Of a DNA stretch of 32,424 nucleotides, positions 2,554 to 32,424 are shown piece by piece. Within the stretch, counting starts at the first letter, position 1. Each line of letters begins with the position of its first letter. This DNA is from an uncultured Muribaculaceae bacterium (GTDB taxonomy: Bacteria; Bacillota_I; Bacilli_A; RF39; UBA660): assembly GCA_964585265.1 (NCBI GenBank), contig CAZPCX010000001.1, forward strand, positions 1-32,424, given 5' to 3'. The translations under genes and the position numbers were made by a program. The notes under the pieces were generated by a model. That model was given only the letters and a program-made list of their open reading frames with translations, was not told the origin of the DNA and did not search any database.

Positions 2554-2612
2554 TTCACCCCACATAATTATTTCAAAGAACCATTACAATAAAGATTTGG
2601 TACTAATTTTAG

Positions 2613-2641
2613 ATTTTACCAAAATAATATTAACAAGTCAA
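2613..2641 (-). promoter_or_regulatory. Sigma-A type promoter upstream of rpoB (TTGACT-17 nt-TAAAAT, with a TGn extended -10)
   Basis: The rc of 2611-2645 reads tttgTTGACTtgttaatattattttggTAAAATct, with an exact 17-nt spacer. It lies in the ybxB-rpoB intergenic gap. Confidence 0.55.
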
Positions 2642-2669
2642 CAAAAACATCGTATTTATTTGCTTTTAT

Positions 2670-3248
2670 CTATTTTTCAGCCGTTATAATACAATATCCT
2701 TTTTTCTTGTTTATAATTTTGACGCTATAAAATTTTTCCAGTTCTTTATTCAAAGATTTAGCTCCTTGTTCTTTTCTTATTACCAATATTAATTTACCTT
2801 CTTTTTTTAAATGATCTTTTGCACTTATTAGAAGATTGTACAGCTTTTCTTTTCCTATTCTAATAGGAGGATTAGTTACAATATAATCATATTCTGAAAC
2901 TATATTTTCATAACCATCACTTTCAAATGCATTAATATTATTTAAATTGTGTAATTCTATGTTTTTATTTGCAAGTACTATTGCTCTTTTATTAACATCA
3001 ACCATATCAACTTTCACATCATAATTACTTCTTAAATATATACCTATTACTCCATATCCACATCCTAAATCAAGAACGTTTCCATGAATATTAGTTATAC
3101 TCTCTAATAATAACTTTGTGCCAAAATCAATTTTATCTTTTGAAAAAAGGTTGTTATCAGTATAAAAAGCATATTCTTTTTTGTTAATAATTGACTTAAT
3201 TGTTTTAACATCTGACTTTACTTCATCATTTGTAAAATAATGAGACAA
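2670..3248 (-). CDS. ybxB: Class I SAM-dependent (RsmC/YbxB-like) rRNA methyltransferase
   Basis: It has the SAM-binding motif VLDLGCGYGVIG and the catalytic TNPPIRIGK (NPPxH/R-type) motif. It sits between rplL and rpoB, as ybxB does in Bacillus. The start is TTG at 3246-3248, 5 nt after AGAGGTG. Confidence 0.8.
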   Translation of the reverse strand: MSHYFTNDEVKSDVKTIKSIINKKEYAFYTDNNLFSKDKIDFGTKLLLESITNIHGNVLDLGCGYGVIGIYLRSNYDVKVDMVDVNKRAIVLANKNIELHNLNNINAFESDGYENIVSEYDYIVTNPPIRIGKEKLYNLLISAKDHLKKEGKLILVIRKEQGAKSLNKELEKFYSVKIINKKKGYCIITAEK

Positions 3249-3274
3249 TATTACACCTCTGTTCTTAAATACGC

Positions 3275-3300
3275 AAAAACCTATACTTTATTTGTATAGG
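3275..3300 (-). terminator. Rho-independent terminator after rplL
   Basis: The minus-strand RNA reads CCUAUAC-AAAUAAA-GUAUAGG followed by UUUUU. The stem is 7 bp and starts 13 nt after the rplL stop. Confidence 0.6.
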
Positions 3301-3312
3301 CCTATATGTTTA

Positions 3313-3678
3313 TTACTTTAATTCTACTGTTGCTCCGGCTTCTTCAAGTTGTGCTTTTAAACTTTCAGCATCTTCTTTAGAAATTCCTTCTTTGATGTTT
3401 CCGCCAGCTTCAGTTAAATTCTTAGCATCTACTAATCCAAGACCAGTAGCTTCTCTAACAATCTTTATAACTGCAATTTTATTTGCTCCAGCTCCATTTA
3501 ATACTACATCAAATTTAGTTTTTTCTTCAACTGGTGCAGCAGCAACTGGTGCAGCAGAAGATACAGCGCTTGGATCTACTCCGAATTCTTCTTTCATTGC
3601 GTCTACTAATTCTTTAATTTCTAGTAAACTCATTCCTTTAAGAGATTCAATAAAACTTTCTTTTGTTAACTTTTCCAT
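3313..3678 (-). CDS. rplL: 50S ribosomal protein L7/L12
   Basis: [34 protein letters not shown]...[11 protein letters not shown] hinge...[10 protein letters not shown]...[10 protein letters not shown] chose the second ATG (3678) because GGAGG is 8 nt upstream of it. The track start at 3684 is only 2 nt from the SD. Confidence 0.95.
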
Positions 3679-3695
3679 ATTCATTTCCTCCTTCT

Positions 3696-4187
3696 TTAAT
3701 TTTCTTTAGTTTCAGCATATAAATTTAATGCTATGCTCAAATCTTTAACTATTCCTATCATACTACCAGCAAGCATTGTTAATAGTACTTCTCTTGAAGG
3801 TATGCTTGCAAGCTTTGATATTACATCTAATGTAGAAATCTTACCTTCTACAATACCACCCTTAATAACTAATAACTGATTCTTTTTTGAGTATTCAGAT
3901 AATACTTTAATTGGTGATACTACATCTTTACCAAATGCTATTGCGTTTGGACCAGCAACACATTCATCTATTGTTAAATTTAAATCATCAAGCGCTCTTT
4001 TTGTAAGTGTGTTTTTGTATATTTTCATATCAGAATTTGTTTCTCTTAATTTTTTTCTTATTTCAGTAATTTCTTCGTCACTTAATCCTCTATAATCAAA
4101 GAATATAATTGAAGATGAATCTTTTACTTTTTCAGTAATTTCAGATACTACATTCTTCTTCTTATCTAATACTTCTTTATTAGCCAT
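3696..4187 (-). CDS. rplJ: 50S ribosomal protein L10
   Basis: The product is L10-like ([27 protein letters not shown]..., 163 aa) and lies directly upstream of rplL. The RBS is AAAGGAGG. Confidence 0.95.
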
Positions 4188-8173: not shown

Positions 8174-8461
8174 TTATTGAATTCTTATATTAAATTCTCC
8201 ATCCTTTGAGAATAAATACTTTTCCCTTGCATATCTCGCAACATAATCAGGATCATTAAGTTTTTCAACTTCTAATTTTAAATATTGTTCTTCTTCCTCT
8301 AAATTCACTAATCTTTCTATAACAGTTTTTCTTTCTGCCTTTATATTTGAAATTTTGATACAAAGTGAAAATATGTTAATTATCATCAATAATATTAAAG
8401 ATAAAGTTAATATACTAATTATTAAAGTCTTTCTTTTTTCTTTTTTTGGAACATCTATCAT
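8174..8461 (-). CDS. divIC: Septum formation initiator (FtsB/DivIC family)
   Basis: It has an N-terminal TM (LIISILTLSLILLMIINIF), a coiled coil, and C-terminal DPDYVARYAREKYLFSKDGE, which is typical of DivIC/FtsB. Confidence 0.75.
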   Translation of the reverse strand: MIDVPKKEKRKTLIISILTLSLILLMIINIFSLCIKISNIKAERKTVIERLVNLEEEEQYLKLEVEKLNDPDYVARYAREKYLFSKDGEFNIRIQ

Positions 8462-8574
8462 AATATCACCTATAATACTACATTATATTATTATACGTAA
8501 CAAAAATCAAAGACTAATAATAAATATTACACATTTTTACAAAAAAAGCACATGCTATTGCAAATGCTTGTTTT

Positions 8575-8898
8575 TTATTCTTCAGTCTTTTCTTCAGAAC
8601 TTTCTTCTGTAGTTTCTTCTTGAGCAACTTCTTCAGTTACTTCACCTTGTTTTTCATATTCCGCTAAAATTTCTTGTTCAAACATTGATCTTATCTCAGG
8701 ATTAATTGGATGTGCTATATCTTTATAACCGCCAGTTGCTGTTTTACGACTTGGCATGGCGATAAACAAACCATTATCTCCTTCGATAATTCTAATATCG
8801 TGAACTGCAAAGCTATCATCTAATAGCACTGATGCAATTCCTTTCATTCTAGAGTTTTCCTTTTCGATTCTGCGAACATTTACCGATGTTATTTTCAA
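8575..8898 (-). CDS. spoVG: Regulatory protein SpoVG, with an acidic C-terminal tail
   Basis: (M)KITSVNVRRIEKENSRMKGIASVLLDDSFAVHDIRIIEGDNGLFIAMPSRKT..GGYKDIAHPIN is canonical SpoVG. The likely start is TTG at 8896-8898, 7 nt after GGAGAGG. The track's longer N-terminus (to 8946) looks spurious. Confidence 0.9.
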   Translation of the reverse strand: MKITSVNVRRIEKENSRMKGIASVLLDDSFAVHDIRIIEGDNGLFIAMPSRKTATGGYKDIAHPINPEIRSMFEQEILAEYEKQGEVTEEVAQEETTEESSEEKTEE

Positions 8899-8962
8899 GT
8901 ATATCCTCTCCTTTATATATATGTAATATACAATTCTAATATACACTAGTTAACAAAATAAA

Positions 8963-11472: not shown

Positions 11473-13032
11473 CTATATTTTGTTTATTTTTTCAAGTTTT
11501 TCTTCTTTGTTTATTCTCAAAAATAGTGGTTCTGGATTATTAAGTTTTGAGTTTATTTCTAAACCTCCAAACTTTTCAAGACTTTCTAAACCATTTACTT
11601 TCGTATTTAATTGATAAAACATTTTTTCTGAAGTGTCCGGAAGAAACGGTTGTAGTAATACTGCTATATATCTTATTGCTTCCAATAAATTATATATTAC
11701 AGTTTTTAATCTGTTATTGCTTTCATTACTTTTTGCTAACTCCCATGGTGTAGTTTCATCTATATATTTATTGCATCTTCTTGCTAATTCCACTATTGCT
11801 TCTATACTCGCATTTACTTCAATAGTTTCCATCTTCTTAGATACTATTTTTGTTGTATTTAAAGCTTGTTCAATTAATTCTTTATCTATATCTTCAATAA
11901 TATCTGATCCTTGTACTACTCCATCAAAATACTTATGGCTCATAGCAATTGTTCTATTAATTAAATTACCAATTGTATTAACTAAATCTGAATTAATTCT
12001 ATCTATTAACAATTCATATGATAATACTCCATCATTTGCATATGGCATTTCATGTAACATAAAATATCTTATTTCATCAAGCCCAAATAAATCAACAAGA
12101 TCGTCAGCATAAATTACATTACCTTTTGATTTGCTCATCTTATCATTTCCTGTTAATAACCATGGATGTCCAAATATAGTCTTAGGTAATTCTTCTTCAA
12201 GTGCCATAAGCATTATAGGCCAATAAATTGCATGAAATCTAAATATATCTTTTCCAATTAAATGCAAATCAGCAGGCCAATATTTTTTATAACTATCACT
12301 ATGATTTTTATCAATATCATATCCTAGAAATGTAATATAATTGCTTAAAGCATCAATCCATACATAAACAATATGCTTTTCGTCAAAAGATACAGGCACT
12401 CCCCAGTTAAACGATGTTCTTGAAACACATAAATCTTGTAATCCTTTATTAATAAAATTATTTGTCATTTCATTTTTTCTTGATTCAGGTAATAGGAAGT
12501 TAGGATTATCATTTATATGTTTGATAAGTCTCTCTGTATAGTTATTTAATTTTAAAAAGTAAGCTTCTTCACTTGTTTTCTCTGCTTCTTTGCCACAATC
12601 AGGACATTTCCCATCAATCAATTGTCCTTCTGCTATGAACGCTTCACAAGATGTGCAATACCATCCTTCATATTTTCCTTTATATATATCTCCTTGATCA
12701 TATAGTTTTTTAAATATTTGTTGGACTTTTTTAATATGTGTTTCATCTGTTGTCTTTACAAATTTGTCATAATTAACATTTAATTTATCGCATGTGTTTT
12801 TAACTATTGTTGCTATATCATCAACAAAATCCTTTGGATTCTTGCCAGCTTCTTTTGCCTTCTTCTCAATTTTTTGTCCATGTTCATCTGTTCCTGTTTG
12901 AAAATATACATCATAGCCTTGTAATCTCTTATATCTTGCTATTGCATCTGCAAGAACAACCTCATAGGTATTCCCAACATGAGGTTTAGATGATGCATAA
13001 GCTATTGATGTTGTAATATAATATTTATTCAT
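11473..13032 (-). CDS. metG: Methionine--tRNA ligase
   Basis: It has HVGN (HIGH-type), KMSKSKGN (KMSKS) and CPDCGKE zinc knuckle motifs. ATG at 13032 is 8 nt after GGAG. The track's GTG at 13041 is less likely. Confidence 0.95.
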   Translation of the reverse strand: MNKYYITTSIAYASSKPHVGNTYEVVLADAIARYKRLQGYDVYFQTGTDEHGQKIEKKAKEAGKNPKDFVDDIATIVKNTCDKLNVNYDKFVKTTDETHIKKVQQIFKKLYDQGDIYKGKYEGWYCTSCEAFIAEGQLIDGKCPDCGKEAEKTSEEAYFLKLNNYTERLIKHINDNPNFLLPESRKNEMTNNFINKGLQDLCVSRTSFNWGVPVSFDEKHIVYVWIDALSNYITFLGYDIDKNHSDSYKKYWPADLHLIGKDIFRFHAIYWPIMLMALEEELPKTIFGHPWLLTGNDKMSKSKGNVIYADDLVDLFGLDEIRYFMLHEMPYANDGVLSYELLIDRINSDLVNTIGNLINRTIAMSHKYFDGVVQGSDIIEDIDKELIEQALNTTKIVSKKMETIEVNASIEAIVELARRCNKYIDETTPWELAKSNESNNRLKTVIYNLLEAIRYIAVLLQPFLPDTSEKMFYQLNTKVNGLESLEKFGGLEINSKLNNPEPLFLRINKEEKLEKINKI

Positions 13033-18875: not shown

Positions 18876-19304
18876 TTATCTTTTATTATAGAAGAAACTT
18901 TTTAAGCTTTTTGAACATTCTTCTTCTAAAATACCACATTCAATTTCTATGTTGTTTTCTTCAGCAATCTTTACTATTTGATCGTGATATTTTTTATTTT
19001 CTGTACCACATACGATTTTACTTATTCTAGATTCTATTATTGCCCCCATACACATTATACAAGGTTCTAAGTTTACAAATAGTAAACAATCGTTTAACCT
19101 CCAATTATTAAGTTTTCTACTCGCTTTTTGTATTGCAATAATTTCCGCATGCTTTGTTGCATCATTTTTTGATTCTTTACAATTATACGCTTTTGAAATT
19201 ATTATATTATTTTTAACAATAATTGCCGCAACCGGTATTTCTCCTTCTTTCTGCGCTTTTCTTGATAATAACAATGTTTTTCTTATATATTTTTCATAAT
19301 TCAT
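18876..19304 (-). CDS. tadA: tRNA adenosine(34) deaminase
   Basis: It has HAE (KHAEIIAI) and PCIMCMGA deaminase zinc motifs. At 142 aa, its position next to ffs and dnaX matches Bacillus. Confidence 0.92.
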   Translation of the reverse strand: MNYEKYIRKTLLLSRKAQKEGEIPVAAIIVKNNIIISKAYNCKESKNDATKHAEIIAIQKASRKLNNWRLNDCLLFVNLEPCIMCMGAIIESRISKIVCGTENKKYHDQIVKIAEENNIEIECGILEEECSKSLKSFFYNKR

Positions 19305-19323
19305 ATTTTTCTCCTATAAAAAT

Positions 19324-19396
19324 GACGTACACAAATTAAATTGCCCTGGCTGCTATCTTCCAATCCTGACCAATTTGACAATTTATTTGTTACGTC
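19324..19396 (-). ncRNA. ffs: Signal recognition particle RNA, small (4.5S-like) type
   Basis: The minus-strand RNA is GACGUAACAAAUAAAUUGUCAAAUUGGUCAGGAUUGGAAGAUAGCAGCCAGGGCAAUUUAAUUUGUGUACGUC. The core GGUCAGGAUUGGAAGAUAGCAGCCAGGGCA aligns with E. coli 4.5S GGUCAGGUCCGGAAGGAAGCAGCCAAGGCA, including the GGAA tetraloop and conserved domain IV loops. The flanks close a long helix (GACGUA/UACGUC, CAAAU/AUUUG, AAAUUG/CAAUUU). The exact ends are uncertain by a few nt. Confidence 0.85.
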
Positions 19397-19402
19397 CATA
19401 TT

Positions 19403-19431
19403 AATATACATTATTTGTTTTTATATTTCAA
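19403..19431 (-). promoter_or_regulatory. Sigma-A type promoter for ffs, probably also driving tadA-dnaX (TTGAAA-17 nt-TATATT)
   Basis: The rc reads TTGAAAtataaaaacaaataatgTATATTaatatgGACGUA..., which places the start about 7 nt before the SRP RNA helix. Confidence 0.55.
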
Positions 19432-19441
19432 CATTTTTATA

Positions 19442-19457
19442 TGTTTCACGTGAAACA
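19442..19457. other. parS: parS site 1 (ParB/Spo0J centromere-like site), a perfect palindrome
   Basis: TGTTTCACGTGAAACA matches the Bacillota parS consensus tGTTNCACGTGAAACa at 16/16. The palindrome extends to 18 bp (19441-19458). Confidence 0.85.
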
Positions 19458-19529
19458 TTGATATTAAAATTAGCTTGGCACTTATCAATTGTTTATTTTA
19501 TATTTATTACATATATTTTTGTTTCAAAT

Positions 19530-19545
19530 TATTTCCCGGGAAATA
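19530..19545. other. Noc-binding site (NBS) 1
   Basis: TATTTCCCGGGAAATA contains the 14-bp NBS consensus ATTTCCCGGGAAAT exactly. The perfect palindrome extends to 24 bp (19526-19549). Confidence 0.8.
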
Positions 19546-19580
19546 ATTTATTGTTTATGATCACACAAATCTATAGCATA

Positions 19581-19596
19581 TGTTTCACGTGGAACA
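19581..19596. other. parS: parS site 2
   Basis: TGTTTCACGTGGAACA is the reverse complement of TGTTCCACGTGAAACA, the B. subtilis parS consensus form. Confidence 0.85.
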
Positions 19597-19764
19597 TTAA
19601 ATTAATAAAACAAAACCATTATTAATTATTTATTTAAAATATATGAATAAATATTATTAGTGATATATTGTCACATTTAAATGATTCGTTGTCATTTTAT
19701 TATGACGCTTTGTTATTTAACAACATTTGTAATATATAAAGAAAATAATCTTATTATTTCAAAT

Positions 19765-19780
19765 TATTTCCCGGGAAATA
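19765..19780. other. Noc-binding site (NBS) 2
   Basis: TATTTCCCGGGAAATA sits in a 24-bp perfect palindrome (19761-19784). The 34 bp at 19757-19790 are identical to 19522-19555. Confidence 0.8.
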
Positions 19781-19815
19781 ATTTATTGTTATAAATATAT
19801 ATTTATTTTTATATA

Positions 19816-19831
19816 TGTTTCACGTGAAACA
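19816..19831. other. parS: parS site 3, a perfect palindrome
   Basis: TGTTTCACGTGAAACA. It shares the flank tatATG...CAT with site 1. Confidence 0.85.
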
Positions 19832-19869
19832 TCGTTTGTTTTTAAATCTTGATCAATTATTGTAGAAAT

Positions 19870-19885
19870 TATTTCCCGGGAAATA
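19870..19885. other. Noc-binding site (NBS) 3
   Basis: TATTTCCCGGGAAATA sits in a 28-bp perfect palindrome (19864-19891). Confidence 0.8.
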
Positions 19886-19894
19886 ATTTCTGTA

Positions 19895-19910
19895 TGTTTC
19901 ACGTGGAACA
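19895..19910. other. parS: parS site 4
   Basis: TGTTTCACGTGGAACA. The 23-bp block tATGTTTCACGTGGAACATTAAA is shared with site 2. It lies 15 nt beyond the gyrA stop codon. Confidence 0.85.
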
Positions 19911-19925
19911 TTAAAAAAGAAAGTA

Positions 19926-22364
19926 TTAATTACTCTCTTCTTCAGACATTATATTTACAACAGCTGTAACTTTTTGGTCTTCTTTTAATTTAATTAAACG
20001 GACTCCTTGTGTTACTCTGCTCATTGCAGATATTTGGTTTACTGGAATTCTAATAATAACTCCAGAATCAGTAATAATAATTAAGTCTTCTTCGTTGTTT
20101 ACTAATTTAAACGCAACTATATTTCCCGTCTTAGTAGTTGTATTCAAAGCTTTAACTCCCTTGCTTCCTCTATGTGTTACTCTATATTCTTCAATTTTAG
20201 TTCTCTTTCCATATCCGTTTTCACTAACAACGAGAACTTCTTGATCATCAGACGCTACACTTGCATCTATACAATAACCATTCATTACATCTATGCCTTT
20301 TACTCCAGATGCAGCTCTTCCCATTATTCTTATTTCTTTTTCATCGAACCTAACCATTCTTCCTTTTGAAGATGCTAATATTACATGTTTATTACCATCT
20401 GTTTTTTTGACAGCAATTAATTCATCTTCATCTTTTAATGTGATTGCCATTTTACCATTTTCTCTTATACTATCAAACTCTGAAATTAATGTCCTTTTTA
20501 CAATTCCACCTTTAGTTACAAATAGTAAACAGTTATTTATTTCACTATCACTTAATGATAAAATTGCTTTTACATACTCATCTTTTTCTATCGGTATTAA
20601 GTTTACAATTGGTAAACCTTTTGCTTGTCTACCATATTCTGGTATCTTATATCCTTTCATTCTATATACTTTGCCTTTATTCGTAAACAACATAACGTGA
20701 TCATGCGTTTCTAATACAATTAAGTGCTCTGCAAAGTCTTCCTCATTTGTAGTCATACCTTTTATACCTACTCCACCTTTGTTTTGAATCTTGTAAGTAT
20801 CTATTGGCATTCTCTTTATATATCCTTTGTTTGTCAAAGTAATCATTATACTTTCTACAGGTATCAATGATTCATCTTCAATATATTCTATTGCAGATAA
20901 ATCTATTTTTGTTCTTCTTTCGTCGCTGTATTTATCTTTTATTTCTAAAAGTTCTGTTTTTATTACTTCACATATTTTTGGTTCACTTAATAATAAGCTA
21001 TTTAAATATTCAATTGTTTTTGCTAATTCTGCAAGTTCTTCTTCTATTTTTTCTCTTTCTAGACCTGTTAATCTTCTTAACTTCATTTCTAATATTGCTT
21101 CTGACTGTGCATCTGATAGATTATATCTGTCGCTCAACTCTTTTTTAGCAATATTATCTGTTTTTGATGATTTTAATATTTTTATTACTTGATCAATATT
21201 GTCTAGAGCGATTTTTAATCCTTCTAATATGTGTGCTCTTTTTATCGCTTTGTCTAAATCAAATTTTGATCTTCTTACAACTATTTCTTTTTGATGATTT
21301 AAATAATTAAACAAAATATCTTTTAAACTTAATATTCTAGGTTCCCCATTAACTAGCGCAAGTAAAATTATTCCATATGATGTTTGTAAAGCTGTTTGTT
21401 TATATAAATTGTTTAATATTACATTGGCATTTGCATCTTTTCTTATTTCAATTACAATTCTTATTCCGTCAATGTTTGATTCGTCTCTTAAATCAGTTAT
21501 TCCATCTATTACTTTTTCTCTAACTAATGCCGCTATTTTTGAAACAACATTTGCTTTATTTACTTGATATGGTATTTCAGTAATAATTATTGATTGTTTT
21601 CCTGAATTATTAACTTCTATTTCTGCTTTTGAACGAATATATATTATACCTCTCCCTGTTTCATAAGCTTTCTTTATTCCACTATTACCTAAAATAAGCC
21701 CCGCAGTAGGAAAATCAGGACCTTTAACATAATCCATTAAACCTTCTACTGTTATGTCAGGATTGTCAATTAAAGCTATTGTAGCATCAATTGTTTCACC
21801 TAGATTATGTGGCGGTATATTTGTTGCCATACCAACAGCAATTCCGGTTGCACCATTTGTAAGTATATTTGGAAATCTAGAAGGTAAAACTTCTGGTTCT
21901 TTTTCTGAACCATCATAATTATCTACAAAATTTACAGTGTCTTTGTTTATATCTTTTAACATTTCCATAGATAATTTGCTCATTCTTGCTTCCGTATAAC
22001 GCTGAGCAGCAGCTCCGTCACCATCGATAGAACCGAAATTTCCATGTCCATCCACTAACATATATCTATATGAGAATTTTTGTGCCATCCTTACCATTGC
22101 TTCGTATATACTTGAATCGCCATGAGGATGGTATTTTCCCATAACGTCTCCGACAATACGCGCAGACTTTTTAAATTGTGTATTTGCAAACATTCCCAAT
22201 GTATTCATTCCATACAATATTCTTCTGTGTACTGGTTTTAAACCATCTCTTACATCAGGCAAAGCTCTAGCAACTATTACACTCATTGAGTAATCAAGAA
22301 ATGAATTTTCCATTTCGTTGGTTATGTTTCTATCTAATAATTTATCAGTTATATTTTCATCCAT
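19926..22364 (-). CDS. gyrA: DNA gyrase subunit A
   Basis: It has [41 protein letters not shown] (QRDR) and [11 protein letters not shown] with the catalytic Tyr. The C-terminal beta-pinwheel repeats are present. 812 aa. Confidence 0.98.
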
Positions 22365-24420: not shown

Positions 24421-24454
24421 AAAAAGAGAATATTTTTTTAATTTAATATTCTCT
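24421..24454 (-). terminator. Rho-independent terminator of recF; the stop codon lies in the loop
   Basis: The minus-strand RNA reads AGAGAAUAUU-N10-AAUAUUCUCU followed by UUUUUAAUU. Confidence 0.5.
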
Positions 24455-25553
24455 TTTCTAATACTCCATCTTTTATTTCATAAATGTCTGCTGTTTTTAA
24501 TAACTCTTTATCTATATTATTTATATCTGTAGTTGTTATAAATGTTTGAATTCCTTTTTTCATATATGTAACTAGATTGTTCTTTTTTTCTTCATCTAAC
24601 TCACTAAACACATCGTCAAGAAGAAGTATTGGATATTCTTTTTTTATTTCCTTAAAAATTTCTAATTCTGCAAGTTTTAAACTTAGTATTGCCAATCTTT
24701 GTTGTCCTTGTGAACCATATTCTTTTATTTCGTGTTTGTTTATATAAAAACACAAATCATCTCTATGCGGTCCATTTATTGTAGTCCCTAAGAACAAATC
24801 TCTCTTTAAACTCGAATTAATTTTTTCATATATTTTATTTTGCAAGATTTCTGCGGTTGTATTAAATATTTCAATGTTTGTTTGATATTCAATATCAAGT
24901 GAATCTCCTTTTGACATTTTTTCATATATCTTTTTTGCTGTTTTGCCTATTTTGTTAATAAAATCTCGTCTCATTTCATATATTGTTGATGCTTTAACAG
25001 AAATCTGTTCATCTATTATTTTAATATATGTTTTATCTATTGTATCAATTGTATTTTGTTTTAAATACTCGTTTCTATTTTTTAATAATTTATTGTAATC
25101 ATTTAAATATATTAAATATTTGTTATTTATTTGTCCTAACTCTATATTTATAAATCGTCTTCTTATACTAGGACTTCCCTTTATCATTTCTAAATCGTCT
25201 GGGCAAAACACAATTATTGTAAATTTTGAAATATATTCACTAATCTTTTTTGTTACATTGTTGTTTATTTTAACACTTTTACCTTTTTCGTTAATTATTA
25301 CTTCTAATTCTAACGTATTATTGTTAGAAATGATTGTTCCTGTTAGTTTTGAAAATTTTGAACCATTTCTTATAAGTTTTTTATCATTATACATTCTGTG
25401 TGATTTTGTTATGCCTAAAACATACAAACTTTCAATTAAGTTTGTTTTACCTTGAGCATTATTTCCAATAAATACATTCAAGTTAGAATTGAAATTAATG
25501 TCTAAATGTTCATAATTTCTGAAGTTTTTAATTTTAATATTCGTTATTTTCAT
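24438..25553 (-). CDS. recF: DNA replication and repair protein RecF
   Basis: It has MKITNIKIKNFRNYE, Walker A GNNAQGKTNL, the signature SQGQQR and Walker B ILLLDDVFSELD. Confidence 0.95.
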   Translation of the reverse strand: MKITNIKIKNFRNYEHLDINFNSNLNVFIGNNAQGKTNLIESLYVLGITKSHRMYNDKKLIRNGSKFSKLTGTIISNNNTLELEVIINEKGKSVKINNNVTKKISEYISKFTIIVFCPDDLEMIKGSPSIRRRFINIELGQINNKYLIYLNDYNKLLKNRNEYLKQNTIDTIDKTYIKIIDEQISVKASTIYEMRRDFINKIGKTAKKIYEKMSKGDSLDIEYQTNIEIFNTTAEILQNKIYEKINSSLKRDLFLGTTINGPHRDDLCFYINKHEIKEYGSQGQQRLAILSLKLAELEIFKEIKKEYPILLLDDVFSELDEEKKNNLVTYMKKGIQTFITTTDINNIDKELLKTADIYEIKDGVLEKRILN

Positions 25554-25587
25554 ATTGTTGTTCTCCTACATAACATTATATTAATTA

Positions 25588-26943
25588 TTATTTGCCTAAA
25601 CAAAATCTACTAAATATTTGATCTATTAGTTCCTCACTATATGTTTCACCTGATATTTCACCTAATAAACTCCATATTTTTTTAAGATCTATTTCCAAAA
25701 TATCGATTGGCGTTCCTTCTTTTATAGCTTTTTCTATATCATTTACCAATTTTAAAGATTCTTTCATAATTGATATTTGCCATGTGTTTGATAAATATGT
25801 TAAGTCTCCATTTTCTATACTTTCAAAATTAAACATTTCTTTTATTTTGTTTTTTAGTTCATCAAGTCCATCTTCTTTTATAGTGTTGCCATATACTATT
25901 ATTTCTTTTTGAAGTTTTTTAACATCAATTTTTCTTTCTAAATCTGTTTTATTAATAAATATTATCTTTTGCATATCTTCTGTCATATTCAATAATTCTA
26001 AATCTTTTTCTAAAACTTTTTCGTTATTGTTCAACACAAGAATTATTAAATTTGCTTCTTTAATCAGTTTTAAACTCTTATTAACTCCTATAATCTCTAT
26101 TTCGTTCTTTGTTTCTCTTATTCCTGCTGTATCTATTATATTCAATAATATACCATCCAAATTAACTGTTCCCTCTACTATATCTCTTGTTGTACCTTCT
26201 ATGTTTGTAACTATAGCTTTGTCTTCTTTTATTAACTTATTTAATATACTACTCTTACCAACGTTTGGTCTTCCTAATATTAATACTTTAATTCCTTCTT
26301 TTACTATCTTTCCGTTTTCTGAATCTTGTATTATCTTATTTAGATCGCTCTTTATTTCCGTTAACTTCCCTTGTAGTTTTTTATTAGTAACTACTTCTAT
26401 ATCTTCATATTCGGGATAATCTATATTAACTTCTATGTTTGAAACTATTTCTATTAGTTTTTCTCTCAATTTCTTTATTTTTTCAGAGGTTTTTCCTTCT
26501 AAACTGTTTATTGATAATTTCCTTGCCTTCTCAGTTTTTGATACTATTAAATCCATTACAGATTCTGCTTCTATTAAATCTATTCTCCCATTTATAAATG
26601 CTCTTTTAGTAAATTCTCCAGGTTGAGCTAGTCTTGCTCCACTATTTAAAACAACTTCCAAAACTTTTTTTGTAGTTGCTATTCCTCCGTGGCAATTAAT
26701 TTCTACAACATCTTCTGTCGTAAAAGTATTTGGTTTTTTCATAACACTTACCAATACTTCATCTATTGTTTCTTTTTTATAAACAATATGTCCATAATTT
26801 ATAGTATGTGTATCTACTTTATTTAAATCTTTACCTTTAAATATTTTACTAACTATTTTGATTGATTTATCACCAGATAATCTTATTATTGATATTGCTC
26901 CTACACCAAGAGCTGTTGATATTGCTACTATTGTATCATTCAT
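25588..26943 (-). CDS. mnmE: tRNA modification GTPase MnmE
   Basis: It has MNDTIVAISTALGVGAISIIRLSG, G-domain motifs GRPNVGKSS, DTAGIR and NKTDL, and the C-terminal FCLGK. Confidence 0.95.
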   Translation of the reverse strand: MNDTIVAISTALGVGAISIIRLSGDKSIKIVSKIFKGKDLNKVDTHTINYGHIVYKKETIDEVLVSVMKKPNTFTTEDVVEINCHGGIATTKKVLEVVLNSGARLAQPGEFTKRAFINGRIDLIEAESVMDLIVSKTEKARKLSINSLEGKTSEKIKKLREKLIEIVSNIEVNIDYPEYEDIEVVTNKKLQGKLTEIKSDLNKIIQDSENGKIVKEGIKVLILGRPNVGKSSILNKLIKEDKAIVTNIEGTTRDIVEGTVNLDGILLNIIDTAGIRETKNEIEIIGVNKSLKLIKEANLIILVLNNNEKVLEKDLELLNMTEDMQKIIFINKTDLERKIDVKKLQKEIIVYGNTIKEDGLDELKNKIKEMFNFESIENGDLTYLSNTWQISIMKESLKLVNDIEKAIKEGTPIDILEIDLKKIWSLLGEISGETYSEELIDQIFSRFCLGK

Positions 26944-27002
26944 ATTATTCGCTCCAATCAATAATATTATATCATTTATATTTATGCTAATAAAGTTATA
27001 TT

Positions 27003-27032
27003 AAAACAGATTTGGGAAATCCAAATCTGTTT
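27003..27032 (-). terminator. Hairpin terminator after jag
   Basis: The minus-strand RNA reads ACAGAUUUGG-AUUUC-CCAAAUCUGU followed by UUUUAAUAU. The stem is 10-12 bp. Confidence 0.5.
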
Positions 27033-27038
27033 GTATAA

Positions 27039-27647
27039 TTAATCTTTTAATTTTATTACTATGTATCTGAATGGTTCTTCACCATTTGATTCTGTTATTA
27101 TTCCTTCTACGCTGTTACAAACATTATGCACGATTCTTCTTTCATAAGAATTCATTGGATCTAGTTTAATTTCCATTCCTGTTCTTTTTACATCTTCAGC
27201 CATTCTTTGAACTCTATATTCTAAATCGTTGCTCTTTTGCTCTTTATATGAACCTACATCCACTAAAACATTTGTTCTGAAACCAGTTTTATTTTGAATT
27301 GAGCTTCTTAATAATATTTGCATTGAATCAACGATTCTACCATTTTTTCCTATAAGTATTGCATTGCTATCAGAAATAATATTTAAATTAATAGAGTCTT
27401 CTCTGATTTTTGCTTCTAAGTTTGCTTCAATTCCCATTTTATTAATCATTTCTTTTATAAACTCTTTGCTATACTCTAGAATCTCTGATTTTAATATTAC
27501 AGTTACTTTTGCTTTTTTTCCCTTAAACAATCCTGAAGCCTCTTCTTCCTCATAAAAATATGCTTCTTTTTCTTTAATTTTTAATTCTTTGATTGCCTTT
27601 TCTTTTGCATCTTCAAATGTTTTTGCAATATATTCGTACTTTTTCAT
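27039..27647 (-). CDS. jag: Jag/SpoIIIJ-associated RNA-binding protein (KH + R3H)
   Basis: Its length (202 aa) and the C-terminal R3H-like ERRIVHNV fit. It lies downstream of yidC. Its ATG overlaps the yidC TGA stop (ATGA). Confidence 0.9.
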   Translation of the reverse strand: MKKYEYIAKTFEDAKEKAIKELKIKEKEAYFYEEEEASGLFKGKKAKVTVILKSEILEYSKEFIKEMINKMGIEANLEAKIREDSINLNIISDSNAILIGKNGRIVDSMQILLRSSIQNKTGFRTNVLVDVGSYKEQKSNDLEYRVQRMAEDVKRTGMEIKLDPMNSYERRIVHNVCNSVEGIITESNGEEPFRYIVIKLKD

Positions 27648-28744
27648 TTTATATCGCCTCTCTTAACTATTAAATTTTGCAATATTGTGAAAGCACTTGA
27701 TGTTATCCAATATATTCCAATAGCTGTTGATAATGAGAATGACATGAATATTATAAATACCAACAAGAATATGTTCATGCTCTTCATTTGCTTTTGAGCA
27801 GGTCCATCTCCAACTGCTTTATTTTGTGCAAATGAGAAGTATGTAACTGCTGCTAGTATTATTACTATAATTATATACCACCATTCTCCTCTAAATATTG
27901 CTACATATGGTGTTAATCCAAGTTTAAATCCAAGAAAGCTTCCTTCAAATATTGCCGGTACTCTATTAATTGCTTCAATAAACGCAAACAAAATAGGTAT
28001 TTGTATTAAGGCAAATAGACAGCTTGTTAATGGATTTATATTGTATTTCTTATATATTGCTATAGTTTCTTGATTTTTTTGCATAACCATTTGTTGATCT
28101 GTCTTATCTTTATATTTTGATTCTACTGCATTTATCTCTGGTTGTGCTTTTTTCATCTTTTCTGATTGTTGTGCTGTACTCTTTGTTATTGGTAACATCA
28201 TTAATCTTATAAGTATTCCTATTATTACTAACGAAAACCCATAATTATTTAATATTGTTCCAAGTTTTAATAAAAGCCACGCTAACGGTTTTATAAAAAA
28301 CGATGTCCAAAGTCCTTCATATCCGCCGTTGTCTATCTTATATTCGCTACATTTTGGTAATGTTTCTATATCTATTCCATATATTTCATAAATAGCTATA
28401 ACATCTTCGTTTGTAGGCTTACATAATATATTTTCTGTTAGTGTTTGTCCTGTTGCATTTTCTTTCGCCACTGTGCATGCAGTTGTACATGTTGTTTCAC
28501 AAGATAATGCTGTTTCTTCTATCTCTGCTAGTCTTATTGTTTCTTCTTCGCTTAATTCTTCTTTATCTTTTAAAATATTATACTCTTCTATTGTTGCATC
28601 ACATTTTTCTTCACATTTTGTACATATAAAATCGGCGTCATATTTAACAATTTTGTTGTCTTCATCTTTTAATGTTTTTGTACAACCTGTTAAAAACATT
28701 ACTAGTAGTAAAATAAATATCATATTTTTAAATTTTATTCTCAT
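27644..28744 (-). CDS. yidC: Membrane protein insertase YidC/SpoIIIJ lipoprotein, with an extended Cys-rich N-terminal domain
   Basis: It has a signal peptide with lipobox (MRIKFKNMIFILLLVMFLTG|C). The YidC core is present (GFSLVIIGILIRLMMLPIT, MKKAQPEINAVESKYKDK, YKKYNINPLTSCLFALIQIPILFAF, GIYWITSSAFTILQ). I prefer ATG at 28744 (GAGGA 8 nt upstream); the track start is 28765. Confidence 0.9.
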   Translation of the reverse strand: MRIKFKNMIFILLLVMFLTGCTKTLKDEDNKIVKYDADFICTKCEEKCDATIEEYNILKDKEELSEEETIRLAEIEETALSCETTCTTACTVAKENATGQTLTENILCKPTNEDVIAIYEIYGIDIETLPKCSEYKIDNGGYEGLWTSFFIKPLAWLLLKLGTILNNYGFSLVIIGILIRLMMLPITKSTAQQSEKMKKAQPEINAVESKYKDKTDQQMVMQKNQETIAIYKKYNINPLTSCLFALIQIPILFAFIEAINRVPAIFEGSFLGFKLGLTPYVAIFRGEWWYIIIVIILAAVTYFSFAQNKAVGDGPAQKQMKSMNIFLLVFIIFMSFSLSTAIGIYWITSSAFTILQNLIVKRGDIK

Positions 28745-29096
28745 TTTTGTTGTCCTCATATACAATATTAATTAATTTTAACAACTTTTCTTCAATTGTT
28801 TTATAATCAATATTTAATATTTCTTTCCTTACTAATATTATACAGTCATTATTCGTTAACGCAATAGAGTTTTTTGTAATTATTTCTTTAATTTGTCTCT
28901 TTATTTTATTTCTTACTACTGCATTACCTATCTTCTTTGGTACTGCAATACCTATTCTATAGTATTTTTCTTTTTTATCATATAAAAATATAATAAAATT
29001 CTTTTCTTTATATGCTTTGCCTTTTTTCATTATAAGAGCAAATTCATTATTACTTTTTATAATATTAATTTTTTTCAATAAATCACCTATTTTCAA
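28728..29096 (-). CDS. rnpA: Ribonuclease P protein component
   Basis: It is small and basic, with KSNNEFALIMKKGK and GNAVVRNKIKRQIKE (RNR-type motif). It lies between rpmH and yidC. The start is uncertain: TTG at 29096 or TTG at 29078. Confidence 0.85.
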   Translation of the reverse strand: MKIGDLLKKINIIKSNNEFALIMKKGKAYKEKNFIIFLYDKKEKYYRIGIAVPKKIGNAVVRNKIKRQIKEIITKNSIALTNNDCIILVRKEILNIDYKTIEEKLLKLINIVYEDNKNENKI

Positions 29097-29123
29097 TAAT
29101 AAAAAACCACCTAAAAAGTGGTA

Positions 29124-29252
29124 TTATTTAGAAAGCTTCTTTCTTCCTTTGATTCTTCTCTTTCCCATTATGTTTGTCCCAGCTTCTTTTCTAGCAAAAA
29201 AACCGTGATCTGCCTTCATTTTTTTGTTATTTGGTTGATATGTTCTTTTCAT
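29124..29252 (-). CDS. rpmH: 50S ribosomal protein L34
   Basis: The minus-strand translation MKRTYQPNNKKMKADHGFFARKEAGTNIMGKRRIKGRKKLSK (42 aa) is L34. The RBS is AGGAGGTG. It is too short for the ORF track. Confidence 0.95.
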   Translation of the reverse strand: MKRTYQPNNKKMKADHGFFARKEAGTNIMGKRRIKGRKKLSK

Positions 29253-29281
29253 TTCTACACCTCCTGGCTTTTAACGCTATA

Positions 29282-29311
29282 ATTATATACTAATGCAAAT
29301 ATGGTTGTCAA
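29282..29311 (-). promoter_or_regulatory. Sigma-A type promoter for rpmH-rnpA (TTGACA-18 nt-TATAAT)
   Basis: The rc reads aTTGACAaccatatttgcattagtaTATAATt. Confidence 0.5.
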
Positions 29312-29331
29312 TTAAATATTTATATTGTTTT

Positions 29332-29340
29332 TGTGGACAA
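29332..29340 (-). promoter_or_regulatory. DnaA box (TTGTCCACA, 1 mismatch to TTATCCACA)
   Basis: The plus strand reads TGTGGACAA. Confidence 0.65.
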
Positions 29341-29380
29341 GTTGTTAATATTTTTTAATAAATGTATGTGTTTAGTTTAG

Positions 29381-29389
29381 TTGTACACA
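29381..29389 (+). promoter_or_regulatory. Weak DnaA box (TTGTACACA, 2 mismatches)
   Basis: The plus strand reads TTGTACACA. Confidence 0.35.
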
Positions 29390-29438
29390 GTTTTAACTGA
29401 AATGTATATGTTATTGTTTAATATATTCTTTTAAAATT

Positions 29439-29447
29439 TGTGGATAC
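29439..29447 (-). promoter_or_regulatory. DnaA box (GTATCCACA, 1 mismatch)
   Basis: The plus strand reads TGTGGATAC and directly abuts the next box. Confidence 0.7.
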
Positions 29448-29456
29448 TGTGGATAA
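29448..29456 (-). promoter_or_regulatory. DnaA box (TTATCCACA, perfect)
   Basis: The plus strand reads TGTGGATAA. It forms a head-to-tail tandem with the box at 29439-29447. Confidence 0.85.
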
Positions 29457-29594
29457 CCTTTATTTTTATCATCTTTTTTACCTTTTTTGTGTTAATAACA
29501 TTGTTAATAACTATTTGTTTGTATTTTTATTAACTTTTTTCTTAAAAATAGGTTAAAATATATATGTAATTGCAATTTTGAGTGAGGTAATGAT

Positions 29595-30938
29595 ATGGAA
29601 AAAGATTCTTTGTGGATAAATTTTTTAGAATTAATTAAAACCAAAATATCTCCGATATGTTTTGAAACATGGTTTAAAGACACTAAATTGTATAGTTTAG
29701 AAGGGGGTATTGCTAAAATAATAGTTCCTATGTCTTTACATAAAAAACACTTTCAAGATAATTATATGGATTTAATATCAGAAAATTTTAACATATTGAC
29801 TGGAACTAATTTTGATTTTGAATTTATTTTAGAAGATGAAGTTAATTTAAAAAAGAAGAAGAACACAGAAGAGAGTGGGGTTCCTTATAATAATCCTGTT
29901 CAAGCAAATATTAATCCTAATTATACTTTTGAAAATTATGTTAAAGGTTCATCAAACAGTCTTGCTTACACAGCTGCTTTAGCTGTTGCTGAAAAGCCAG
30001 GCAAGGCATATAATCCTTTATTTATATACGGTAACAGCGGTTTAGGTAAGACACATTTAATGCATGCAATAGGAAATTATATATTAACTACCAGTAATAA
30101 GAAGGTTTTATATGTAACTAGCGAAAGATTTATAAGTGATTTTATAAATATAAATAGAAAAGATAGTAATAATGATTTTGTAGAAGCTTTTAAAAATAAA
30201 TATAGATCTTTAGATGTATTAATAATAGATGATATTCAATTTTTATCAAATGCGACACAAAGTCAACAAGAGTTCTTTCATACATTTAATGAATTACACC
30301 AAGAAGGAAAACAAATTATTATTTCTTCTGATAGATCACCAGATGATTTAAAATTATTAGAGGAAAGACTTAGAACTAGATTTAATTGGGGATTAGCATG
30401 TAATATATTGCCTCCGGATTATGATTTAAGAATTGAAATATTAAAGAAAAAGCTTAGTGTTCATGAATTAGCTAGACCATTAAGTAATGATGTAATAGAA
30501 TTTATTGCAAGTAATTGTGATTCTGATGTTAGAAAATTAGAAGGTGCATTAAATAGATTATTTGCATATACAGCTATGTTTAATAAAGAAAAAATAGATT
30601 TAAATGTTGCTGTAGAAGCTCTTAGTGATTATTTAGTATCTGCATCTTATTTAAAAAATAATATACAAAAAATTAAAAAGATTGTGTGTGATTATTATAA
30701 TATTACAGTTGAAGAAATGGTTTCAAAAAAGAGAAGTAATTATGTTACTTTACCTAGACAAGTAGCAATGTATTTATGTAGAATGATTACTGATGAAAGT
30801 TTTCCAACTATTGGTTTTGAATTTGGAGGAAGAGATCATTCAACAGTAATGCACGCGTGTAATAAGATTGAAATAGAAATTAAAAAGAATAAAGATTTTA
30901 AGAATGTATTAGATCAATTAAAATTAAAACTTAAATAA
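29595..30938 (+). CDS. dnaA: Chromosomal replication initiator protein DnaA
   Basis: It has Walker A GNSGLGKTHL, Walker B LIIDDIQFL, sensor motifs and the domain IV DnaA signature (LPRQVAMYLCR...FGGRDHSTVMHACNKI). Confidence 0.98.
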   Translation: MEKDSLWINFLELIKTKISPICFETWFKDTKLYSLEGGIAKIIVPMSLHKKHFQDNYMDLISENFNILTGTNFDFEFILEDEVNLKKKKNTEESGVPYNNPVQANINPNYTFENYVKGSSNSLAYTAALAVAEKPGKAYNPLFIYGNSGLGKTHLMHAIGNYILTTSNKKVLYVTSERFISDFININRKDSNNDFVEAFKNKYRSLDVLIIDDIQFLSNATQSQQEFFHTFNELHQEGKQIIISSDRSPDDLKLLEERLRTRFNWGLACNILPPDYDLRIEILKKKLSVHELARPLSNDVIEFIASNCDSDVRKLEGALNRLFAYTAMFNKEKIDLNVAVEALSDYLVSASYLKNNIQKIKKIVCDYYNITVEEMVSKKRSNYVTLPRQVAMYLCRMITDESFPTIGFEFGGRDHSTVMHACNKIEIEIKKNKDFKNVLDQLKLKLK

Positions 30939-31069
30939 TTGTTAATAACACCTATTTGTTAACTAATAACTTTTATAAATATTTACATTGATTTCTTACC
31001 TTTTTTGGTTTATTAACAATTTACACAGTAATAAAAAATATATATAATAAAAATAAAGGAGAATATATA
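30939..31069. other. oriC: oriC, downstream half (dnaA-dnaN gap with box-like motifs and an AT-rich candidate unwinding element)
   Basis: It contains TTATTAACA (31010-31018) and ATTTACACA (31019-27) box-like motifs. These are followed by the nearly pure A/T tract aataaaaaatatatataataaaaataaa (31029-31057). The bipartite layout matches Bacillus oriC. Confidence 0.6.
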
Positions 31070-32188
31070 ATGAATTTAATAATTAAAAAAAATATTTTAT
31101 TAGAAAACTTAAATTATGTTTCAAGAGCTTTATCCAACAAAAATTTAATACCAGTTTTAGCAGGAATTAAATTTGAATTAAAAAAAGATGGATTATATTT
31201 AATGTGTAGTAATGATGATATTACTATTGAAAATTATATATTGAAAAAAGATATTGATGAAGTTAATGAAGTAGGTAATATAATTATTCCTGGCAGATAT
31301 TTTGTTGATATTATAAGAAAAATTCCAAACGAATATATTAAAATTAAAACAGATGGATTAAAAATAATAATAAATACAGATACAGGAGAATATAATTTAA
31401 ATGGAATTGCTTCAACAGAATTTCCTAATAGAAAATTTGAATTAAATGAAAAACCAATAATTGTAAGTAAAACAAATTTAAAAGATATAATTGATCAAAC
31501 TTCTTTTGCAATATCTACACAAGAATCAAGACCAGTATTAACAGGAATAAATTTAAAAGTAGAAAATAAAAATTTAAAATGTATAGCAACAGATTCTTAT
31601 AGATTGTCTGAAAAAACAATAAATTTAGTGGAAAAAGTAAAAGAAGAAATAAATATAATTATTCCTGGAAAAAATTTAATTGAGTTATCTAAAATGTTTG
31701 ATGATAAAGAAGAAAATATAGAAATTCATATATTTAGTAATAATGTATTATTTAAATTTAATAATATAATATTTCAATCAAGATTATTAAACGGAACATA
31801 TCCAGACACATCAAAATTAATAGTAGGGGAATCAATTTTAAAAGTAATTGTGAATAAAGAAGAATTATATAATATAATTGATAGAGCTGCATTATTAACT
31901 TCAGAAAAAGATAAAAATGTAGTAAAAATGGAAGTTATAAAAAACAAAATAATTGTAAGTTCTATTTCTCAGGAAATAGGTAAAATAGAAGAAACAATGA
32001 ATATTAACAAAGATAATAATAAAGAAATGAGTATAGCTTTTTCATCAAAATATATGATGGATGCAATAAGAGCTTTTAAAAAAGAAAATATTGAAATTAA
32101 TTTATCCGGTGAAATAAAACCAATAATTATTAAATCAGAAAACGAAGAGGATTTAATAGAATTAATTTTACCAATAAAAACTTTTTAA
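31070..32188 (+). CDS. dnaN: DNA polymerase III beta sliding clamp
   Basis: It is 372 aa with a three-domain clamp pattern (LLENLNYVSRALSNKNLIPVLAGIKFEL, SRPVLTGINL, ATDSYRLS, LLNGTYPD). It lies downstream of dnaA. Confidence 0.97.
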   Translation: MNLIIKKNILLENLNYVSRALSNKNLIPVLAGIKFELKKDGLYLMCSNDDITIENYILKKDIDEVNEVGNIIIPGRYFVDIIRKIPNEYIKIKTDGLKIIINTDTGEYNLNGIASTEFPNRKFELNEKPIIVSKTNLKDIIDQTSFAISTQESRPVLTGINLKVENKNLKCIATDSYRLSEKTINLVEKVKEEINIIIPGKNLIELSKMFDDKEENIEIHIFSNNVLFKFNNIIFQSRLLNGTYPDTSKLIVGESILKVIVNKEELYNIIDRAALLTSEKDKNVVKMEVIKNKIIVSSISQEIGKIEETMNINKDNNKEMSIAFSSKYMMDAIRAFKKENIEINLSGEIKPIIIKSENEEDLIELILPIKTF

Positions 32189-32241
32189 TTGTTATTTATA
32201 TCGTTTTTCTTTATAATATCTAATTGAGAAAAGGTGATATT

Positions 32242-32424
32242 ATGGATTATGAAATAGTAGTTGTAGGCGGCGGACACGCAGGGTGTGAAGCCGCTCTTTC
32301 GTGTTCTAGATTAGGACATAAAACATTATTAATAACAGGTAGTTATAATTGCATAGCAAATATGCCTTGTAATCCATCAATAGGAGGATCTGCAAAAGGA
32401 ATAGTTGTTAGAGAAATTGATGCA
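32242..32424 (+). CDS. mnmG: tRNA uridine 5-carboxymethylaminomethyl modification enzyme MnmG (GidA), N-terminal 61 codons; it runs off the window
   Basis: [32 protein letters not shown]...[18 protein letters not shown] is the canonical GidA FAD-binding N-terminus. The RBS is AAGGTGA. Confidence 0.95.

Follow-up and report, generated by a model that had tools for sequence, protein, structure and literature searches.

Which proteins are served by a row of seven G+C-rich palindromes that are packed into one non-coding gap close to the replication origin of an uncultured bacterium? The question is raised by a 32,424-bp stretch of DNA, referred to here as the window, which is contig CAZPCX010000001.1 (positions 1 to 32,424) of assembly GCA_964585265.1, titled as an uncultured Muribaculaceae bacterium and placed by GTDB among the RF39 Bacilli. 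In the window, the gap between gyrA and ffs, the gene of the small signal recognition particle (SRP) RNA, holds four copies of parS, the site of ParB/Spo0J, which are interleaved with three Noc-binding sites (NBS). We propose, at a probability of about 0.6, that two different ParB-family DNA clamps that depend on cytidine triphosphate (CTP) load in this gap, which would make it a composite loading zone close to the origin.

Four parS and three NBS palindromes between gyrA and ffs

The array lies entirely in the non-coding gap between the gyrA stop codon and ffs, the boundaries of which were drawn from open reading frames (ORFs), NCBIfam and Rfam. The gap and its sites, none of which is assigned to a strand, are as follows:

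19407..19925: gyrA-ffs intergenic gap, 519 bp, with the whole array inside
19442..19457: parS, exact TGTTTCACGTGAAACA, 36 bp upstream of the ffs 5' end (19406)
19526..19549: 24-bp palindrome AAATTATTTCCCGGGAAATAATTT around an exact NBS (TATTTCCCGGGAAATA, 16-mer 19530-45); this flank extension is conserved in the clade
19581..19596: parS variant TGTTTCACGTGGAACA, from the motif scan
19761..19784: 24-bp palindrome AAATTATTTCCCGGGAAATAATTT around an exact NBS (16-mer 19765-80), whose flanks share 93% identity with the flanks of the NBS at 19530-45
19816..19831: parS, exact TGTTTCACGTGAAACA, from the motif scan
19866..19889: 24-bp palindrome AAATTATTTCCCGGGAAATAATTT around an exact NBS (16-mer 19870-85), from the motif scan
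19895..19910: parS variant TGTTTCACGTGGAACA; 9 bp separate it from the NBS before it, and 15 bp from the stop codon of gyrA

The sites alternate strictly (P N P N P N P, where P is parS and N is NBS). All seven had been noticed in an earlier note on this DNA, and our motif scan found each of them at the same coordinates. The three NBS, which the note called exact, are indeed exact 16-mers of the palindrome ATTTCCCGGGAAAT, each within an exact 24-bp palindrome. Its count of four parS also stands, with the correction that two match the 16-bp palindromic consensus TGTTNCACGTGAAACA exactly and the two TGTTTCACGTGGAACA copies deviate from it once, at the mirror-image position of the consensus N; the gap, given there as 525 bp, measures 519 bp. 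Measured to the DnaA boxes and the GC-skew switch, the distance between the array and oriC is 9.4 kb, the value given in the note, and the array thus has the origin-proximal location that is typical of parS.

The sites stand out from their surroundings. The G+C content of the window is about 27%, while that of the gap is 15% outside the sites and 39% within them. In 100 dinucleotide-preserving shuffles, the mean number of matches was 0.17 for parS and 0.19 for NBS, and four was never reached. With up to three mismatches allowed, no further parS-like site was found in the whole window, and the only other NBS-like 16-mer was TATTTCTCAGGAAATA (31963-31978), a palindrome with two mismatches inside dnaN. 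The same parS variants dominate in relatives, in which TGTTTCACGTGGAACA was found 38 times, and the related loci contain 296 exact copies of the NBS. No terminator-like structure was found at the palindromes, and no Rfam family other than ffs was found in the window or the tested related loci. A repetitive extragenic palindromic (REP)-like repeat, a terminator and an RNA element were rejected as candidates on the basis of these two results and the small number of copies outside the gap.

In the window and in L005, L025, L032 and L091 (the related loci are referred to by such numbers), the parS nearest to ffs is found 31-39 bp ahead of the 5' end of the mature SRP RNA, close to the expected place of a -35 element or slightly upstream of it. 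Because of this position, ParB binding to the ffs-proximal parS could influence ffs transcription.

The array in related lineages

Relatives from four lineages were fetched by GyrA homology with no motif selection, which makes them an unbiased sample, and mixed parS/NBS clusters were present in the same gap of every one of them; a comparison of this gap across related genomes had been proposed in the earlier note. Exact look-ups of the GyrA, DnaA and DnaN proteins of the window gave no match, and three loci that were fetched via YidC homology do not extend to the gap. In L004, L005 and L006 (GyrA identity 82%), three NBS-parS pairs follow gyrA, with the 16-mers 19-20 bp apart, and L004 shows a fourth pair that arose by duplication at a scaffold gap. 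In L010 (77%), one NBS and four parS in a 48-bp tandem unit precede the contig end, and L011 (68%), which comes from a 2.03-Mb record, has parS, parS and NBS in a 190-bp gyrA-tadA gap in addition to an NBS inside ybaB. The inter-site spacers vary in both length and sequence; the sites themselves are conserved. ffs lies between the array and tadA in all seven of the tested loci that contain that stretch.

A metagenome scan with the pattern TATTTCCCGGGAAATA-N(5-35)-TGTTNCACGTGNAACA gave at least 120 loci. Since the pattern selects close NBS-parS pairs, the pairing and spacing statistics of this set are biased. Among the matches listed, the array adjoins gyrA and/or tadA/dnaX in 113 of 120 loci; both flanks are present in 53 and most of the others are cut by contig ends. 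The GyrA proteins of the metagenome loci are about 45-73% identical to that of the window, which indicates that the clade is broad. The names given to relatives include 'Bacilli bacterium', 'Mollicutes bacterium' and Candidatus Pelethosoma (NCBI: Mycoplasmatota incertae sedis). Across about 1 Mb of related origin-proximal DNA, the arrays hold 630 exact sites (378 parS and 252 NBS), compared with 34 (6 parS and 28 NBS) outside them. The view of the earlier note that this is a dedicated origin-proximal array and not a dispersed REP-like family is therefore supported. Its description as an alternating array is accurate for the window, which is one case among many: the clade's arrays comprise 2-11 sites over 0.2-1.7 kb in varied order, with parS in excess and with patterns that include PPN, NPPPP and PNPPPPPPP.

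A single clearly different context was seen among the scan matches listed, L105 (49% G+C, from an unrelated organism), in which positions 630-4107 carry noc, parA and a canonical parB in this order, with three parS and one NBS in the intergenic DNA that separates noc from parA. Close juxtaposition of parS and NBS thus also exists beside a classical noc-soj-spo0J operon. The pattern had no matches in viral contigs (0), and a phage or mobile origin was rejected on this basis.

The start-to-start distance between neighbouring NBS and parS sites has a median of 42 bp and a mode of 22-37 bp in the scan-biased set, in which P-P and N-N distances have medians of about 135-141 bp; in the unbiased loci the N-P distance is 25-51 bp. 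No clear helical periodicity was visible in the NBS-parS spacing, in a sample that is biased by the scan window. Regular tandem units were found in L116 (2943-3386) and L091 (12-315), where they measure 61 bp and 72 bp and contain one NBS and one parS each, and in L010 (12557-12716), where the 48-bp unit contains parS only. These units show that the arrays expand by unit duplication. In many relatives, a lone exact NBS is located in the coding sequence of dnaX or ybaB, 2-3 kb from the array (L011:15047, L014:7171, L016:7114, L021:5412); the window has no such NBS in these two genes.

The two site classes are discrete. When all of the loci were scanned with the frame TNTTNCNCGNGNAANA, in which the discriminating positions are left free, the 712 framed sites comprised 404 pure parS, 298 pure NBS, one parS/NBS chimera and nine others, and hybrid half-sites (G..C or A..A) made up 3 of 1,424. 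The classes also differ in what they tolerate: at position 5, parS accepts both T and C (581 vs 225) and NBS only T (598 vs 2). Additionally, A occupies position -1 in 99% of the unique parS, and AAAT surrounds the NBS at 71-87%. Discrete classes with tolerances and flanks of their own are the pattern expected of two proteins with different recognition surfaces, and they argue for two readers.

Readers of the sites and interpretation of the locus

A candidate reader of the NBS is encoded in close relatives. Beyond the point that corresponds to the mnmG 5' end of the window, these continue with mnmG, rsmG and a Noc-type ParB paralogue; in those that share the gene order of the window (L007, L013, L134-137), dnaN, mnmG and rsmG are followed by a single ParB-family gene. 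Adjacency to rsmG is present in L007, L013 and L134 and absent in L012, in which the Noc-type gene is an orphan 155 kb from gyrA. The genes that follow it are unrelated (surface immunoglobulin-like proteins, ArgRS, RF-1), and neither parA nor a second parB (soj-spo0J) was found in its neighbourhood in L007, L013, L012 or L134. Of the rsmG-noc-parA-parB locus that the earlier note had expected, the Noc-type gene after rsmG is there in relatives, without ParA or a canonical ParB.

The Noc-type proteins are 351-539 aa long, match both ParB_N and HTH_ParB of Pfam, and score higher against the Noc structures that are their best PDB matches (7NG0, 7NFU, 7OL9; about 202 bits) than against Spo0J/ParB (about 158 bits). 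They share the architecture of the Noc family, i.e., an N-terminal CTP-binding domain, a helix-turn-helix (HTH) domain and a Noc-like C-terminal dimerisation domain, and AlphaFold models an N-terminal domain, an HTH domain, a disordered linker of about 100 aa and a small C-terminal domain (predicted residues 315-353). The CTP-binding motifs are kept, with GERR and the ENxxR positions (E94, N95, R98) invariant. Positions 173, 179, 184 and 201 read Q-K-(N/G/S/T)-R in 120/120 of the best homologues, with Q173 and R201 invariant. Previous work assigned the reading of A1 of the NBS to Q173 and that of C6 to R201, and showed that a single lysine at either 179 or 184 is sufficient (PMC7383237). As all three of these NBS-reading residues occur in the paralogue, albeit in close relatives only, it is predicted to be NBS-specific; the variants QKNR, QKGR, QKSR and QKTR do not appear in the text of PMC7383237. 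The earlier note went by the consensus when it named the two classes of palindrome parS and NBS. This assignment is sound, and it is strengthened by the synteny of a paralogue with Q173, K179 and R201 in close relatives. An NCBI protein of 356 aa on a 10.3-kb contig (P0364), which has the combination QKNR, may be the Noc-type copy of the metagenome-assembled genome to which the window belongs.

The membrane-targeting part of Noc is an N-terminal amphipathic helix of about 26 aa (alpha-1, alpha-2 and a loop; PMC8429893), and it is absent from 120/120 of the best clade homologues. The Noc-type proteins begin 4-12 residues before strand beta-1, and AlphaFold places no helix ahead of the first strand (E6-10). 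In L007 and L013, the space ahead of the gene does not allow an earlier start, and in L134 an in-frame ATG eight codons upstream would add only MRIKVGLF. Because this helix is missing, the paralogue is probably not a classical membrane-tethering nucleoid-occlusion factor, and the membrane-tethering hub that the earlier note had suggested loses its basis. The disordered linker of about 100-300 aa contains two conserved short motifs, A-x-D-I-N...[AV]-[DN]-[IV]-x-x-L-[LM] and K-N-[KR]-F-[LIF]-x-x-[FL]-[DE] (residues 255-300 of P0247). The second is basic and aromatic and loosely resembles the N-terminal SFSRFFGL of B. subtilis Noc; judged by this likeness, it could be a relocated membrane- or partner-binding peptide.

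For the parS, we infer that a canonical ParB/Spo0J exists in the clade because parS is strictly conserved and the Q173/R201 protein is predicted to be unable to read it. Noc and ParB are established CTP clamps (PMC8429893, PMC7053999). By analogy with them, the four parS of the composite loading zone would be nucleation sites for the canonical ParB/Spo0J and the three NBS for the clade-specific Noc-type paralogue; each protein would load at its own palindromes, switch with CTP to a closed clamp and slide onto the flanking few kilobases beside oriC. Two ParB-type nucleoprotein complexes would thereby be superimposed on the origin region of a lineage in which the paralogue has no parA next to it. 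The arrays would grow and shrink by duplication of NBS+parS units. The ParB-parS complex would presumably serve SMC loading and origin organisation, as it does in the ParA-less cocci. As the known membrane anchor is not available to it, the Noc-type complex might have another role; we speculate that it recruits a partner via the linker or modulates initiation or division in the manner of S. aureus Noc (PMC5540599).

Several observations weigh against the composite loading zone. Apart from the one in the unrelated L105, no canonical ParB (R173/G201) was found in the 134 loci, about 1 Mb of origin-proximal DNA, when every ORF was searched with hidden Markov models (HMMs). The HMM and NCBIfam search of the window ORFs returned no ParB-family gene; the Noc-type gene is seen in relatives only, and its position in the window would lie off the contig end. 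Moreover, the mixing of sites across the clade means that strict alternation is not general, and we infer, rather than observe, the binding, the loading of clamps and the functional coupling of the two complexes.

Among the alternatives, the one that survives best assumes two independent readers without functional coupling, whose sites pile up in the first sizeable non-coding gap by oriC. Both classes would need origin proximity, G+C-rich 16-mers would fit poorly in the genes of a 26% G+C genome, and the interleaving and pairing can be explained as a by-product of unit duplication, of which L116, L091 and L010 provide examples. The wide variation in the number, order and spacing of the sites, the excess of parS (378 vs 252), the NBS that stand alone inside dnaX and ybaB and the lack of helical phasing in the N-P spacings fit this explanation as well. 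However, both classes are kept together in every lineage that was fetched without motif selection, and N-P neighbours are far closer to each other than P-P or N-N neighbours, a difference that is scan-biased in the large set but is accompanied by distances of 25-51 bp in the unbiased loci. We regard this explanation as unlikely, though one to be taken seriously. A bolder proposal, which we put forward tentatively and also think unlikely, is that ParA and the Noc membrane anchor were lost and that the Noc-type paralogue was repurposed as a centromere protein, with the NBS as a second or replacement centromere that assembles together with parS at the one fixed locus by oriC; in the extreme case, it would be the sole ParB-family protein and serve both classes.

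A related explanation, already raised in the earlier note, is that there is only one reader, i.e., that these chromosomes encode no ParB-family protein besides the Noc-type paralogue, which would have a natural dual specificity for parS and NBS. It would account for the single ParB-family gene in the origin-proximal DNA of the clade, with no parA or parB after it in L007, L013, L012 and L134. Position 184 is N, G, S or T instead of the near-invariant lysine of known Noc, and variants with dual specificity do exist in a deep mutational scan (PMC7383237). In that same scan, however, R173 was invariant among the parS binders and the dual-specificity variants mostly had T or S at 201, while Q173 and R201 are invariant in the best 120 homologues of the clade. 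Furthermore, the site classes are discrete, with different variation and flanks and one chimera in 712, and a single relaxed reader would not need both classes to be kept in every lineage. A dual-specificity protein is therefore disfavoured, and we find this explanation doubtful. That the palindromes are not ParB-family sites at all and represent a REP-like repeat, hairpins or terminators of the gyrA or ffs RNA or the operators of an unrelated regulator is highly improbable: they are G+C-rich and intergenic, and in several lineages a parS is located 31-39 bp before the 5' end of ffs, but they match the parS and NBS consensus base for base, have no more copies in the 32 kb and, across about 1 Mb of related DNA, very few that are not in the gap, lack terminator-like structure and Rfam matches besides ffs, are conserved in exact sequence rather than in pairing, have no matches in viral contigs and are accompanied in relatives by a protein with the matching NBS-reading residues.

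The composite loading zone can be set beside several known systems. Compared with the Noc-NBS system of B. subtilis and S. aureus, the 16-bp NBS core TATTTCCCGGGAAATA is identical, and the paralogue shares Q173, K179, R201, the GERRxxA and ENxQR motifs, the Noc-like C-terminal domain and, in L007, L013 and L134-137 though not in L012, the gene position after rsmG. Known NBS, about 40-70 in number, spread across half to two-thirds of the chromosome on the origin side and are absent near the terminus, whereas those of the clade crowd into a single gap next to parS, with few additional genic copies. The clade paralogue also differs from known Noc in having N, G, S or T at 184 and the long disordered linker with its two motifs. 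With the ParB/Spo0J-parS system of B. subtilis, S. pneumoniae and S. aureus, the clade shares the consensus parS, the natural T/C variation at position 5 and the origin-proximal location. In B. subtilis, parS are single sites that are dispersed over hundreds of kilobases, mostly in genes; here, 2-9 parS occupy one gap of 0.2-1.7 kb at the fixed gyrA-ffs position and are mixed with a second class, and no cognate ParB was found in the clade loci among the 134. The clade is apparently ParA-less, a configuration that is known in streptococci and staphylococci; S. aureus is likewise without ParA (PMC5540599).

Plasmid centromeres (F sopC, P1 parS, type Ib and type II parC) are likewise built of tandem site units and grow by duplication, but they are plasmid-borne, have a single reader and consist of regular unit repeats, whereas the present arrays are chromosomal and comprise two classes. 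On chromosomes, clustered parS centromeres occur in Caulobacter crescentus, Myxococcus and Streptomyces. They are also known in Corynebacterium glutamicum (PMC7083940) and Pseudomonas aeruginosa (PMC4368675). In such clusters, several copies near oriC similarly form one ParB loading region, but with one site class and one ParB, and none has been reported to be interleaved with the sites of a paralogue of different specificity.

Both motifs and both protein families are thus already known. What is new is the dedicated mixed array at a fixed locus, conserved across more than 100 metagenomic lineages, a Noc-type paralogue that lacks the membrane anchor of Noc and the absence of soj-spo0J from its usual place. 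In agreement with the earlier note, which knew of no such array, our full-text searches found no description of interleaved parS/NBS arrays, nor of Noc or parS in RF39-like Bacilli. ParB and Noc are textbook paralogous CTP-switch clamps with diverged DNA specificity, and each has been investigated as a system of its own with its own genomic targets. Here their loading sites lie 9-35 bp apart in a natural and conserved locus, which offers a test bed for whether two clamps would collide, block each other, mix or cooperate on one stretch of DNA. What a Noc-type protein does once its membrane anchor is missing is a further question that the locus raises, and it points to how the origin may be segregated and organised in abundant, uncultured, apparently ParA-less gut Bacilli of low G+C content.

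Gene order around the origin

The neighbours of the array and the landmarks of the origin in the window are as follows:

18876-19304, minus strand: tadA, next after ffs (NCBIfam)
19309..19406, minus strand: ffs, small SRP RNA (Rfam RF00169, 61.8 bits), the downstream neighbour of the array, kept in the clade
19926..22364, minus strand: gyrA (NCBIfam NF004043, 1191 bits), the upstream neighbour of the array, kept throughout the clade
29100..29594, no strand: oriC region, from rpmH/rnpA to dnaA, with DnaA boxes and the GC-skew switch
32244..32424, plus strand: 5' end of mnmG; the contig stops 181 bp into the gene

Leftwards of oriC, the minus strand carries rnpA, yidC, jag, mnmE, recF, gyrB, gyrA, the gap, ffs, tadA, dnaX, ybaB and recR, and dnaA and dnaN run rightward from oriC. 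The DnaA-box cluster spans 29332-29456, and the sign of the GC skew flips at about 29.0-29.5 kb; a scan of the window found no DnaA-box cluster in the gyrA-ffs gap, the boxes being confined to oriC. Compared with L025, L032, L055, L094, L106, L110, L111 and L120, positions 24438-32424 of the window form an inversion that spans oriC. In the inverted layout (the window, L004, L005, L007, L010 and L134), mnmE is followed by recF-gyrB-gyrA on one replichore and dnaN by mnmG-rsmG on the other, and the ancestral order dnaA-dnaN-recF-gyrB-gyrA is retained by many clade members. The array lies about 9-10 kb from oriC in both layouts.

The clade appears to be walled and at least partly spore-forming, and not mycoplasma-like, since 'Mollicutes'-labelled relatives encode SpoIVA, SpoVIF, SpoIIR and a class A penicillin-binding protein (L011:17486-19287; L134:13614-15527 and 20033-20551) and the window carries spoVG and divIC (8174-8946). 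L001 and L013, which come from assembly GCA_964424005.1 (CAYRHA010000022 and CAYRHA010000023) and are titled 'uncultured Muribaculaceae bacterium', have Bacilli-type origin genes and a YidC that is 84% identical to that of the window; this bin is probably mislabelled or contaminated. Finally, the arrays break metagenome assemblies at a predictable place: in L004, the array is interrupted by a scaffold gap of 100 N (12520-12619) whose flanks are duplicated, and many contigs end within an array, among them L010, L021, L037, L054 and L133.

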